From Phycisphaerae bacterium (GTDB lineage Bacteria > Planctomycetota > Phycisphaerae > UBA1845 > Fen-1342): DNA of 64,000 bases. Shown one piece after another: positions 10,661-15,589 of this stretch. The DNA lies in contig CAXXWX010000027.1 in the NCBI GenBank assembly GCA_963675745.2, positions 160,001 to 224,000 on the forward strand, read 5' to 3'. A model generated the notes under the pieces. It ran no database searches. It saw only the letters and a program-made list of their open reading frames with translations, and was not told the DNA's origin. Every line of letters starts with the position of its first letter. Positions within the stretch are counted from its first letter, which is position 1. The position numbers were made by a program, and so were the translations under genes.

Positions 10661-10819
10661 AACACCGGATCGCTTTGACACACGTGGGGCTGCCCGCCGT
10701 TGATGGCGCCGCCGGCGCGTAGCCTGGTTGTCGCCGACGGCGGTGTCCCGCACCGCGAGCCGGCTTGCCCGCTCCCGCCATCTGGACGCCCCGTGCGGCG
10801 GCCAATAGGATGGCTAATC

Positions 10820-11305
10820 ATGTCCGCCGAGCCCAACGAAATGCTGCGTGCCGCGCTGCTGGACTTCCTTGACGAAGCCTTCAACCGCCGATCATGGCAC
10901 GGCACGAATCTGCGCGGCTCGATCCGGGGGCTCAGCGCGGCTGTCGCGTCACGCCGTACGACTGCCAGCCGACACACGATCGCCGAGCTGGTCGTCCATT
11001 GCGCGTATTGGAAGTACAGCGTTCGCCGGCGGTTGTTGGATCAGCCGCGCGGCGAATTTCCGCTCAAGGGTAGCGACTGGTTCACATTGCCCGACACCCC
11101 CACCGACGCCGACTGGAAGGGCTACGTCAAGCTGCTGGCCAGCGAGCACGACCAGCTTCGTGCGGCGGTCGCGTCCTTCGACGCCGCCCGGCTGGAACAG
11201 GTGCCGGCGGGCGGGAAGGTCCCCTTCGATATGCTCATCCGCGGCGTCGCATTGCACGACGTCTACCACGCCGGCCAGATTCAGGTGATCAAGCGCGTCC
11301 GCTGA
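10820..11305 (+). CDS. DinB family protein
   Basis: SWHGTNL, HTIAELVVHCAYWK, LHDVYHAGQI (DinB histidines). Confidence 0.9.
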   Translation: MSAEPNEMLRAALLDFLDEAFNRRSWHGTNLRGSIRGLSAAVASRRTTASRHTIAELVVHCAYWKYSVRRRLLDQPRGEFPLKGSDWFTLPDTPTDADWKGYVKLLASEHDQLRAAVASFDAARLEQVPAGGKVPFDMLIRGVALHDVYHAGQIQVIKRVR

Positions 11306-11331
11306 CCATGACGCCGCGTGGGTGCCCCGCA

Positions 11332-11542
11332 TGGGTGCCCCACGGCTTGCCGTGGGGGACTGACCGGAGGTAGGTTGGCACTTCAAACGGTGGGTGTGGG
11401 TGCCCCGCGGCTTGCCGTGGGGGACTGACGAGAGGTAGGTTGGCACTCCCACCGCCTGATCAGTCCCCCACCTCAAGAGGTGGGGCACCCGCGCGTATGT
11501 GGCGCCGTCCGCGTTCGACGGCCGACGAGGACGTCGGCCGCT
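11332..11542. repeat. REP cluster: tandem GGGTGCCCCRCGGCTTGCCGTGGGGGACTGAC...GAGGTAGGTTGGCACT units, GATCAGTCCCCCACCTCAAGAGGTGGGGCACCCG, and a CGGCCGACGAGGACGTCGGCCG hairpin
   Basis: Direct duplication at about 11332-11381 and 11398-11447. The CCCCACCTCAAGAGGTGGGG module recurs at about 37445-37478 and, inverted, at about 39049-39082. Confidence 0.8.
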
Positions 11543-11556
11543 TCTATGCAAGCTCC

Positions 11557-11777
11557 GTGTCTGTCAAGCGGCGTTGGGGGGTGGACCCCAATCTTCTATC
11601 CGAGCATCTCCTGCGAGCAGGATAGCCCACACGGGTATTCCGAGCGGTGCGGGTTGCCCCATCTACGAACGAGCGTCAACAACAGCCCCAGCGGCCAACG
11701 AGCTCACCCGCGCCAAGATCCTCTCCCAGCCAAACGCCGCCCTCCGGTGCTCTCCGGAGGGGAAAGAAGTCTGTTTT
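11557..11777 (-). ncRNA. Candidate IS110/IS1111 bridge/seek RNA region
   Basis: Lies 3' of the transposase, as in IS1111-type elements. Contains hairpins (CCTCCGG/CCGGAGG, TCCTGC/GCAGGA) and short matches to the element junctions and target flank. Exact RNA boundaries unknown. Confidence 0.6.
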
Positions 11778-12812
11778 TTAGCCCGCCGCCTCCACCGACG
11801 GCAACATCTCGTAATACAACTTCCGCACCCAGCGATTGGCCACCGCCGCCACGATCACGCAGCGGGCCTTGCCGGCCTGCGACAGTCGCGCGGCCAGATC
11901 ACACCAGTGCGGATCGTAGCGTTTCAGGCGATGGGCCAGTTCGATCAACGCCAGCTTCAACTGGCGATTGCCGCCACGCACCAGGCCGGCGTCCGCCTGA
12001 CGCTCTCCGCTCGACGCATTCTGCGGGCTCACCCCGCAGTAGTGCGCCAACTGCTTGCCAGAACCGAACCGCTCAAACTGCCCGATCTCAGCACGCAGCA
12101 CGCCGGCCGTGATCAGCCCGATCCCAGCCTGCTCCAGTAAGCGTTGGACCAGCGGATCATCGGCGACCGTTTCTCCCAGCCGTTGTTCATATGTTTTGAT
12201 CTCCGCCGCCAGGTAATCCAGATGACGCAGATGCCGACCCAACAACCATTGCGATTCGTTCGGCAAACGTGCGTCCGACGCCAGTTCGGTCAACCAAGCC
12301 TGGCCGCGTCGGGTCCACACGCGTCGCACCGTCTCCGGCTTGCCGATCCGAAGATCCCGCAACAACGCCCGCACACGCAGCTTCACCCGTCGAGCCTCTT
12401 CGACCAACGCTTGCCGCCCGCGGGTCAGACGCCGCAGTTCGCGAATCGCCGACGGCGCCAGCCATACCGGCGGCAGATAGCCAACACGCCGCAGATCGGC
12501 CAGCACACGGGCGTCGCTGTAATCCGTCTTGTCCGGATTCCGCTTCATACGCCGCACAAAGCCCGGATGGGCCAGTTGCACCGGCCAGCCCCGCCGCTGA
12601 ATCAGTTCGTCGGCCAGAGTGGCGGCTCCGCAACACGCCTCGATCGCCACCCCGCCGATCGGACCAAAACGTTCGGCGTATGCGATCAAGCGATCGCCCT
12701 CACTGCGCAGCCGCCGCGTGCCGAGTTGGCAACCGTCCGCGTCCAAAACCACAACCTGCGAAACCTGATCGGCGTAGTCAATCCCTACAAATACCGGTAC
12801 GCTACCTTTCAT
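11778..12812 (-). CDS. IS110 family transposase/recombinase (DEDD RuvC + Tnp domain)
   Basis: VGIDY, AIEAC, KTDYSDA (DEDD); GIGLITA, IGQFERF, CGVSPQNASSG (catalytic Ser region), GNRQLK, AVANR; AAGGAG RBS. Confidence 0.95.
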   Translation of the reverse strand: MKGSVPVFVGIDYADQVSQVVVLDADGCQLGTRRLRSEGDRLIAYAERFGPIGGVAIEACCGAATLADELIQRRGWPVQLAHPGFVRRMKRNPDKTDYSDARVLADLRRVGYLPPVWLAPSAIRELRRLTRGRQALVEEARRVKLRVRALLRDLRIGKPETVRRVWTRRGQAWLTELASDARLPNESQWLLGRHLRHLDYLAAEIKTYEQRLGETVADDPLVQRLLEQAGIGLITAGVLRAEIGQFERFGSGKQLAHYCGVSPQNASSGERQADAGLVRGGNRQLKLALIELAHRLKRYDPHWCDLAARLSQAGKARCVIVAAVANRWVRKLYYEMLPSVEAAG

Positions 12813-12929
12813 CGCTTGCTCCTTGGTCAGGAAACTCGATTTACCAACCCGAGTTGTACTCGGGAGACCAAGGAGCTTGCATCCCCATCTACGGCGGTGT
12901 GCGTGTGCCCCGCGGAGGTGTTGGCGTGG

Positions 12930-13253: not shown

Positions 13254-13490
13254 TTGCTTCGCCTCCGGCGTTGCAGCCGTGTGCTGCGCACATCGTACAT
13301 GATTGGCGTCCCAAGCGGCATGGCGGCGGCGCGAGCCGTCGGGCCCCGCTCTGCCGCCGGCACTTCGTTTGAGCCCGGCACGCAGGATTTTCGCACGGGA
13401 ATGTCGGATTCGGCTGTGGGTCGCTGGGTTGGATGTCGTGATCTCTTACGGCGGAGCTGCGTTCGATTCACGCTGCGAGAGGAGCATTCC

Positions 13491-15092
13491 ATGGCGCGAC
13501 GGCTTGTCACCGGGCTACTGGCCGTACTGACATTCTGCACAGCGGCCAACGGTCAGACGGCGGCGGGCAACGCCGGCGGTGCCCAGGACGTCACGATTAG
13601 TGGCACGTTCAGCACCGTCTGGGGCGACCCCGAAGGCCTCGCCGGCACGCCCCACCAGCGGTACTTCATTGACGACGGCGTCAAGACACGCGAGCTCCTG
13701 GTGGACGAGGACACGCTGCGGGCCGCCGGCGGCGGCTGGGCGCTCAATGGGCAGCCGGTGGCCATAGACGGGTGGACGGTCGATACGCCGTTGGCGCCTG
13801 TCGTCGTGGACCGGCTGATCGCCAACCAGACACGCCTCCCCGCCCCGGGCGAGAAACCCACACTGGGCGGGCGCGTCAGCGGTTCGCAGCCGTACGTGTG
13901 GATTCTGGTCCGTTTCGCCGGCGACCCCAGCACGCCCGAGCCGGTGAGCTGGTTCGAGTCGCAGGCCCTCGGCCCCAAGCCCAGCATGGACGACTTCTGG
14001 CGCGAACAATCGTTCGACCAGATCAACCTGATCGGCAGCGAGGTCTATGGCTGGTACGACCTGCCCCACCCGCGCTCGCACTACATGAGCGGCGACGACT
14101 TCCTGCTCAGTGAGGCCTTTGACGACGCCGTCGCCGAGGCCGACGCGGACGTGTACTTCCCCACCTTCATCGGCATCAACGTGATCTTCAACGACACGCT
14201 CGACTGCTGTGCCTGGGGCGGCTCGCGGACGCGGACGCTGGACGGCGTCACCAAGACCTATGGCGTGACCTGGATGCCTCCGTGGGGTTGGCGTGAGCAC
14301 GGCGTGATCGGTCACGAAATGGGCCACGCACTGGGGCTGCCGCACTCTTCCGGGCCGTACGGTGCCGTGTATGACTCCAAGTGGGACGTCATGAGCAGCG
14401 CGACCGGGACGTGCGCCACATTTGATCCGGTCTACGGGTGTCTGGGGCTGCACACGATCTCGTACCACAAGGACATGCTAGACTGGATCGCGCCGTCGCA
14501 ACGCTGGGAGACCGACTCGTATCCCCAGGCGCAAGCCCTGATGCTCTGCAACCTGGCGGTGCTCCCGCCCAGCGGGTACTTCCACATCCTGCGAATGTCG
14601 AAGTGGCAGACCGCCCCGTCGCAGTTCTACACGGTCGAGCTGCGCCGCCTGGTCGGCTATGACGAAAACGTTGCCGCCGACGCCGTCGTCATGCACGACG
14701 TCGATCCGACGCGCGCCAGCCACGCCCTGGTGGTTGACAGCGATGGCGATGGTGATTGCAACGACGAGGGGGCCATCTGGGAGGTGGGCGAGTCGTTCTG
14801 GGACGCATCGAACGACATCGTCATGACGGTGGAGTGGACCACGGCGGATAACGCGGGGATCACGTTCACCAACGCCGCCCGATCGGCGGTGTATGTTGAC
14901 TCCGGCGCGAGCGGCTATCAAGACGGCAGCTCCGCCGACCCTTGGAGCACCGTGTGGGTCGGGTACATCGGGGCGACGCCCGGCGGCACGGTGTACATCG
15001 ATCCGGGCTCGTATGACGAGTCGGTCACGCTGCGCAAGCCGACGACGCTGCGCCGCTGGGGCACATCGGGGACGGTGACGATCGGCCAGTGA
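13491..15092 (+). CDS. Secreted zinc metallopeptidase (M6/M11-like metzincin)
   Basis: GAGGAG RBS before ATG 13491; signal peptide; HEMGHALGLPH; Met-turn WDVMS; C-terminal YVD..A.G..DGS..DPW domain. Confidence 0.85.
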   Translation: MARRLVTGLLAVLTFCTAANGQTAAGNAGGAQDVTISGTFSTVWGDPEGLAGTPHQRYFIDDGVKTRELLVDEDTLRAAGGGWALNGQPVAIDGWTVDTPLAPVVVDRLIANQTRLPAPGEKPTLGGRVSGSQPYVWILVRFAGDPSTPEPVSWFESQALGPKPSMDDFWREQSFDQINLIGSEVYGWYDLPHPRSHYMSGDDFLLSEAFDDAVAEADADVYFPTFIGINVIFNDTLDCCAWGGSRTRTLDGVTKTYGVTWMPPWGWREHGVIGHEMGHALGLPHSSGPYGAVYDSKWDVMSSATGTCATFDPVYGCLGLHTISYHKDMLDWIAPSQRWETDSYPQAQALMLCNLAVLPPSGYFHILRMSKWQTAPSQFYTVELRRLVGYDENVAADAVVMHDVDPTRASHALVVDSDGDGDCNDEGAIWEVGESFWDASNDIVMTVEWTTADNAGITFTNAARSAVYVDSGASGYQDGSSADPWSTVWVGYIGATPGGTVYIDPGSYDESVTLRKPTTLRRWGTSGTVTIGQ

Positions 15093-15127
15093 ATCAAACG
15101 CGACCCCTGCTGAGCGAGGTGCGATCA

Positions 15128-15589
15128 ATGAACGCGACTAACTGGAGAAGAGACGCGCTGCGGTGCGGCGTCCTGGGCTTGCTGGCCTGTGCAGTTCTAC
15201 CGCTTGCAGCGGCCCAGCAGTACGAGATCGATTGGTGGACCGTTGACTCGGGCGGCGGAGCGTCCAGCGGCGGTTACTTCGACGTAGCCGGCACGGTCGG
15301 TCAGCACGATGCGGGCACAACCATCATGACCGGCGGCGGATTCGAACTGACCGGCGGATTCTGGGGCGTCACCACCACTGGGGAGCCACAGTACGAGGTC
15401 GGCGATCTTAATTGCGACGGATGGGTCAACAACGGTGATATAGACGCCTTTGTATACGCCCTCTCGTATCCCGAGCAGTATCCCGATGAGTACCCCGACT
15501 GCGACATCATGCTCGGGGACATCAACGGCGATGGCTGGATGAACAACGGGGATATCGACGCCTTCATCACGCTTTTGAACGAGCAGTAG
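15128..15589 (+). CDS. Small secreted protein with C-terminal dockerin-like domain
   Basis: GAGGT RBS; signal peptide; QYEIDWWTVDSGGG...GTVGQHDAG...LTGGFW domain; two EF-like repeats GDLNCDGWVNNGDIDAF and GDINGDGWMNNGDIDAF. Confidence 0.85.
   Translation: MNATNWRRDALRCGVLGLLACAVLPLAAAQQYEIDWWTVDSGGGASSGGYFDVAGTVGQHDAGTTIMTGGGFELTGGFWGVTTTGEPQYEVGDLNCDGWVNNGDIDAFVYALSYPEQYPDEYPDCDIMLGDINGDGWMNNGDIDAFITLLNEQ

Follow-up and report, generated by a model that had tools for sequence, protein, structure and literature searches.

Does the IS110-family element found in a Phycisphaerae genome carry an RNA of its own that directs its insertion, and which DNA bases does that RNA read? The question is raised by one locus in the window, the whole 64,000-nucleotide stretch of contig CAXXWX010000027.1 (positions 160,001 to 224,000) that was analysed. 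A sequence-only reading had described an IS1111-type element with ends at 11543 and 12891, in whose 3' non-coding region one 11-nt and two 7-nt matches to the junctions and the target flank were taken as guides around a core within TAGA; all of the strings it quoted lie where it had placed them. As the joint best explanation of the obtained results, we consider it highly probable that this is a mobile IS110-family element with an IS1111-like layout, a CT core, a REP target and a two-loop guide RNA. Its features are listed in Table 1. Published systems are described below from the accessible parts of the cited papers.

Table 1. Features of the element and its insertion site, in window positions.
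Feature	Position	Strand	Basis
Left target flank, REP-like palindrome split at its end by the insertion	11518-11540	+	Same hairpin type leads to CT-AC at empty sites
Core CT, right end (downstream end of gene)	11541-11542	+	Empty-site counts; matching dinucleotide at the other end in relatives
Right-end 3-bp terminal extension (part of right donor)	11543-11545	-	Kept in relatives; read by right donor guide
Right subterminal inverted repeat	11546-11556	-	11 bp, perfect
TTGACA, likely -35 box of a promoter completed in the circle (inferred)	11562-11567	-	Fixed distance to core in 22/22 distinct right ends
Predicted bridge RNA, two-loop core	11583-11717	-	Covariance model; compensatory changes
Donor-loop handshake AU	11591-11592	-	Fits the element's own donor, not its target
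Right donor guide including core	11593-11599	-	Equals right end plus core in 31/33 loci
Probable left donor guide strand (weak)	11629-11638	-	Fold symmetry; ∼4 matching bases, one G-T wobble
Target-loop handshake AU	11661-11662	-	Fits donor positions 7 and 6, the former by its first base in 16/16
Right target guide including core	11663-11669	-	Covaries with flank, 58/90 positions, strongest beside core
Left target guide including core	11690-11698	-	Covaries with flank, 102/114 positions
Hairpin directly 3' of stop codon	11741-11760	-	Folded sequence; recurs elsewhere
Recombinase ORF	11778-12812	-	IS110-family DEDD; 344 aa; intact; D12, E58, D97, D100, S268 conserved
Left subterminal inverted repeat	12872-12882	-	11 bp, perfect
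Left-end 6-bp terminal extension (left donor)	12883-12888	-	Parsed left ends: 6 bp in 35/40, 5 bp in 5/40
Core CT, left end	12889-12890	+	Empty-site counts; relatives
Right target flank; AC completes the REP end	12891-12895	+	Second copy; empty-site counts; X2 contig end at 12892

The intact DEDD recombinase and the 11-bp subterminal repeats of the sequence-only reading were both confirmed. The ORF contains PF01548 and PF02371, which are the N-terminal DEDD domain and the C-terminal domain with the catalytic serine, and it scored 208.5 bits against NF033542 (NCBIfam), where the cut-off is 140. Across the clade formed by this recombinase and its relatives, D12 was conserved in 25/25 proteins and E58, D97, D100 and S268 in 26/26, and the catalytic positions coincide in an alignment with IS621. 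A long non-coding region lies 3' of the gene. The terminal extensions and the core add up to 11 bp (6 + 2 + 3), or to 10 bp for 5 of the 40 parsed left ends. In the modelled circle, the hexamer 17 bp beyond TTGACA is only a partial -10 match, and a promoter and terminator scan of the linear element called neither. The hairpin behind the stop codon was also observed in some distant relatives (L013, L039, L074) and on its own at G000:C3:266254-266283.

The boundaries of the element were set by its insertion sites. A second copy (G000:C15:282153) shows 0 differences over 1349 bp and sits in the same motif; in both copies, GGCCGCT lies on one side and CT followed by ACG on the other. The empty site is accordingly GGCCG-CT-AC, the end of a REP-like palindrome whose other strand reads GTAG. 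This CT-core empty site, GGCCGCTAC, occurs 278 times in the genome against 102.6 expected. For the 13-mers that join AC to the flank of each copy, 13 and 82 occurrences were counted where 1.2 and 0.8 were expected. Furthermore, AC follows GGCCGCT in 159 of the 205 genome hairpins of the flank type seen at the first copy. The second copy and the hairpin, 13-mer and empty-site counts therefore place the CT core (AG on the gene strand) as given in Table 1 and identify the target as the end of a REP-like palindrome. GTAG-tagged REPs are a described superfamily (PMC3733652), and six Y1 transposase matches were found in the genome. On this sequence evidence, the element is inserted into the GTAG foot of REP-like palindromes.

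A geometry with the core in TAGA and the ends at 11543 and 12891 draws on the presence of TCTA at both places in both copies, and one relative (L041) has three extra junction bases of the kind that such a model expects. The empty site it implies is found once in the genome (0.39 expected), and the first 10 bases of that site are under-represented (14 against 22.5), whereas the CT-core site is a genome-wide repeat end. Of 30 relatives, only 12 have TAGA at the left junction. We therefore regard this geometry as very improbable; its boundaries lie 3 bp off, and the circle junction proposed with it would be 3 bp too short given the CT-core empty-site counts. One dinucleotide is common to both ends in 29/30 relatives, a count that is partly by construction because the parser accepted only a few dinucleotides.

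Contigs from public sequencing runs were also considered. One high-depth contig of run X2 covers exactly 11536-12892; runs X1 and X2 come from one sample, which may be the source of the assembly. In another public sample, a third flank, of the commoner REP type, precedes the element. The summed depth of the element against its flanks was 27.8 against ∼4 and 34.8 against ∼9, which is no measure of copy number. Neither a circle joint nor an empty allele was listed in the public-run contigs examined, contigs being a form of data that drops rare forms. Among the listed sequencing runs there was no RNA run containing the element, which has no bearing on its expression. Within the explanation as a whole, RNA guide included, which we hold with high confidence, the element is intact and recently mobile and has an IS1111-like layout.

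Conserved folds in the 3' region can reveal the RNA that the element may encode. A total of 66 related loci were collected, in 43 of which the encoded protein reaches an identity of 40% or more across >150 aa, and 24 non-identical 3' regions from these closer relatives were aligned. The consensus fold consists of two hairpins, in both of which short, near-invariant stems enclose a large internal loop. Base pairing was possible in 96.3% of the cells, compared with 84.5% after shuffling and 34-49% in slid controls, and compensatory two-sided changes were observed in 13 of the 29 pairs; the fold was predicted on the same alignment that was used for scoring, and the invariant inner stems carry no covariation signal. 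The second (donor) loop is as conserved as the first and shares its scaffold. The covariance model matched the window with an E-value of 9e-19, the window copy itself being part of the training set. Folded as a single sequence, the window RNA was no better than its shuffles (z -0.72) and hid part of the guides, and an Rfam scan gave chance-level matches only. A closure of the donor loop by a CCCA/TGGG stem was rejected, as CTCG is paired instead in the consensus fold.

The sequence-only reading had itself suggested a covariance model and a guide/target comparison as a check. Guides and flanks were taken at fixed offsets from scaffold anchors. Both loop and flank were available for 31 loci; 12 were dropped as repeated guides, including the two copies of the window element and L041, which was a miss. 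In the remaining 19 distinct left target guides, 102 of 114 non-core positions matched the element's own flank, compared with 49.7 ± 5.8 (maximum 78) in 100,000 permutations, two registers being allowed for real and permuted left-guide pairs alike. The 18 distinct right target guides (of 30) matched at 58 of 90 positions against 26.3 ± 4.4 permuted, with matches climbing from 4/18 at the far position to 16/18 beside the core. No permutation of the 100,000 reached the observed score for either guide, counts which overstate significance since the relatives are not independent. The guides thus track the flanks.

Nine further loci were found later through the RNA model and stand outside this test; two have decayed target loops. 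Judged by eye, six of their seven scorable right ends fit their guide, a number that includes two ends fitting the guide of L011, whose flank had been unknown, and L075 fits poorly. In L013, flank and guide agreed at 0/6 positions. Irregular right ends were seen in L082, where the joint lies 5 bases from the core, and in L045, where the terminal part is missing. A natural change of core was found in four copies (L042, L050, L053 and L055; G215), referred to as the L042 group. Their core is CA and their left extension measures 5 bp; the two right guides are altered to match this core, and the left target guide is unchanged. The left donor guide comprises about four bases with little variation and one apparent co-change. 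The top-strand match lies 5' of the bottom-strand match in the RNA, as reported for IS1111 seekRNAs.

The matches noted in the sequence-only reading can be interpreted in the light of these guides. Dinucleotide shuffling of 11570-11777, repeated 1500 times, never reproduced the 11-nt match and gave the two 7-nt matches in 21% and 22% of the shuffles. The 11-nt match does contain the right target guide, together with the core, the handshake AU and four Gs, three of which belong to the closing stem; its reading as a single guide was therefore rejected. The G part is probably incidental, as in some relatives these positions do not agree with the left end. The 7-nt matches, each common in shuffles on its own, are validated only by covariation in relatives; the one at 11593-11599 corresponds to the right donor guide, core included. 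An origin of the matches by chance, or as remains of an end duplication in a G+C-rich element, with the protein alone giving specificity, would agree with a 7-nt match appearing in about one in five shuffles. The change of guides with flanks across 19 distinct guides, and a fold with compensatory change, largely refute this idea, which we find hardly credible.

Guide/flank and fold covariation in relatives therefore strongly support the claim that the 3' non-coding region encodes a bridge or seek RNA reading both target and donor, and the element very probably uses its own RNA as an insertion guide, its expression being inferred. By analogy with IS621, ISEc11 and ISPa11, the 3' region would be co-transcribed with the gene, and the recombinase would bind it. 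Both strands of the REP end would be read through pairing with the target loop, and the joined ends of the element through pairing with the donor loop; strand exchange would take place at the CT core, and movement would proceed through a circle whose joint completes a promoter. Copy-out or direct-transfer chemistry is possible (PMC11187229; 10.1101/2025.10.25.684509).

An RNA that only seeks the target, the protein recognising the ends chiefly via the subterminal repeats and copy-out or direct top-strand transfer taking the place of IS621-type reciprocal exchange, appears unlikely to us; the handshake arithmetic discussed below would then not apply. According to the accessible text of PMC11187229, short seek RNAs (70-100 nt) are the prevailing form in IS1111 elements, and no rejoined target was seen for ISEc11; copy-out and truncated target-loop pathways are described for CazIS110-1 in the accessible part of 10.1101/2025.10.25.684509. 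In the present element, the weak left donor guide and the occurrence of a lone target loop elsewhere in the genome point the same way. Against this, the second loop is equally conserved on the same scaffold, and the right donor guide is identical to right end plus core at 31/33 loci, having changed along with the core in the L042 group.

Under the preferred reading of a two-loop guide RNA, the handshake bases deserve attention. The right guides of IS621 each include the core; the two handshake bases that come next pair, once strands have been exchanged, with positions 6-7 of the partner DNA (PMC11208158). One handshake pair before insertion becomes three after it, a gain of two (PMC13626964). 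Among 16 distinct complete elements of the clade, in which the AU/AU state of the window is represented by L002, the first target-loop handshake base always fitted donor position 7. The first donor-loop base also fitted donor position 7 in 16/16, compared with 6/16 for target position 7, and in the 10 cases where donor and target differ at this position it fitted the donor in all 10. The net gain of pairs on insertion was therefore 0 in six elements and +1 in ten. The IS621 pattern, in which both loops gain pairs after exchange, was not observed in the clade; this pattern is a reported regularity and no formal family criterion.

In the accessible text on IS621, the change G166A strongly reduced insertion (PMC11208158), and A166-U167 forms part of an RNA engineered for excision (PMC13626964). 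Given that the donor-loop handshake fits the donor, the bias between insertion and excision would be expected to be flatter than in IS621. The near-invariant A of the donor loop may be structural. Only one co-change of handshakes was found, in the L048 group, where both went from A to C together with donor position 7 from T to G, and it is confounded because the target also has G. In L045, which lies outside the 16-element set and has an unparsed right end, the handshake bases fit its target. Four IS1111-type comparators were inspected by eye, and among them IS4321 fits the target and IS1383 fits both.

The left guide was found in two registers, the core occupying loop positions 9-10 or 8-9 depending on the element, on an unchanged scaffold. 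The register label switches six times on the tree, at least five of these being forced by well-supported branches; for some elements, no measured flank underlies the label, which follows the loop pattern. A natural donor-fitting donor-loop handshake was not described in the accessible parts of the literature on IS1111 and handshakes that we searched, mostly without subscription papers, and nothing was found on IS110 bridge RNA in Planctomycetes in the literature searched under the same restriction. Extended Data Fig. 10c (PMC11208160) and Fig. 1i (PMC13626964), from papers accessible in part, may already show donor-fitting handshakes or the efficiency of the AU/AU state, which would lower the novelty.

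The phylogenetic placement of the recombinase bears on how the element should be classified. Its clade forms a long, fully supported branch in both protein trees, outside the tight cluster of IS4321, ISEc11, IS1383, ISShdy1 and one unnamed relative. The two trees disagree on the nearest relatives, and a sister position to the tight IS1111 cluster was obtained in one tree only, at 81/63; IS1111 itself and the ISCARN28/ISAzs32 branch were absent from both. Pairwise and profile scores were higher against ISAtu7-type and haloarchaeal proteins, which lack long repeats. The best plasmid matches were at most 33% identical, and a pattern scan of viral contigs gave no match. An E-value of 1e-30 was reached by 3079 of 8000 scored candidate proteins, which is not a count of the clade. 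Named relatives are mostly Planctomycetota, and close homologues, with the source genome included in each count, were found in 1/401 genomes of a phylum-wide sample, 15/401 of the class and 17/279 of the order. A Planctomycetes recombinase in row 471 of Supplementary Table 1 of PMC11208160, which has no ISfinder name there, shares the clade motifs by eye, so the clade was sampled in the tree of that paper; the accessible text gives no RNA, target or test for this protein. By sequence comparison, this is a deep clade without a close named element, that is, an uncatalogued lineage of a known kind.

Similarities to IS621 include a DEDD and serine recombinase and a two-loop RNA with four guides including the core (PMC11208160, PMC11208158, PMC13626964), a CT core with a REP target ending in CT-AC (PMC11208160), and a target-loop handshake AU that fits donor A6-T7. 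In contrast to IS621, the RNA lies 3' of the gene, long subterminal repeats are present, the CT strand is opposite the gene strand and the protein is distant (E 1.4e-13). The donor-loop handshake fits the donor, which corresponds to the A166-U167 state that hinders insertion in IS621, and the left guide occurs in two registers.

With ISEc11, ISPa11, ISKpn4, IS4321 and IS1383, the element shares the long 3' non-coding region, 11-bp subterminal repeats within the 11-13 bp of the IS1111 group, a 3-bp right extension, the top-strand match before the bottom-strand match and a length of 344 aa (PMC11187229); it also shares a REP target with ISPa11 (PMC11187229), an identical right end and first five right-donor-guide bases with IS4321, and the same core with IS1383, to which the RNA model gave a weak match (E 0.019). 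The protein is only 24-29% identical to those of the group and falls outside their 100/100 cluster, its C-terminal motif reads GV where theirs reads GL, and 11 bp would separate the repeats in the circle where 10 is usual in the accessible descriptions. The reported extension rule (7 or 6 bp left, 3 bp right) likewise does not hold, as the element has one bp more than 7 + 3. The IS1111 label of the sequence-only reading suits the layout, but the transposase lies outside the tight IS1111 cluster. The element is therefore assigned to the IS110-family bridge recombinases, with a mode of working like that of IS1111 elements, and IS1111-group membership is not claimed.

Several derivatives and neighbours of the element were also observed. 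A lone 40-nt target loop (L083:301-340; G000:C26, ∼629500-629539) has near-identical guides with one base missing, no donor loop and an adjoining REP cluster; it is either a decayed remnant or a free target-loop RNA. A left end without a gene (G000:C15:426845-426915) and short pieces of the 3' part of the gene interspersed with REP-like repeats (G000:C1:264750-264859) are remnants or assembly patchwork. L074:1080-1700 is an internally deleted, non-autonomous derivative with both ends, an RNA with almost the same guide and the same REP-end type. In the 3' flank of L005, a second left end of the element starts ∼95 bp past the right end, which suggests that a single repeat cluster took up adjacent insertions. 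Directly upstream of the insertion site, the window holds a second, unrelated palindromic repeat cluster (11316-11495; 65-bp period, found genome-wide), preceded by a DinB-superfamily gene (10700-11305, +). Further along the window lie what we take to be a secreted zinc metalloprotease with a HEXXH-like motif (∼13490-15092, +) and, after it, a small protein (15089-15589, +) with repeated motifs that are presumably calcium-binding.

Bridge recombinases are under development as programmable tools for insertion and excision, and poor excision is a limit of IS621. The clade offers a compact and very regular two-loop RNA, at least 19 naturally reprogrammed target guides and one natural change of core, and its donor-loop handshake has the state to which IS621 was engineered in favour of excision. 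The donor-fitting donor-loop handshake and the two left-guide registers are testable departures from IS621; apart from these, the element is an expected REP-targeting insertion sequence. As the donor-loop state fits the donor, the handshake rule can be tested directly on a natural counter-example. We further suggest, tentatively and as a possibility we would not yet favour, that the clade is a separate large bridge-recombinase lineage that acquired or retained the IS1111 layout separately from the classic cluster, with a naturally balanced handshake and a target loop that accepts the core at two positions. If true, this would be a natural bidirectional enzyme, in which the target loop favours insertion and the donor loop excision, breaking the IS621 handshake rule.
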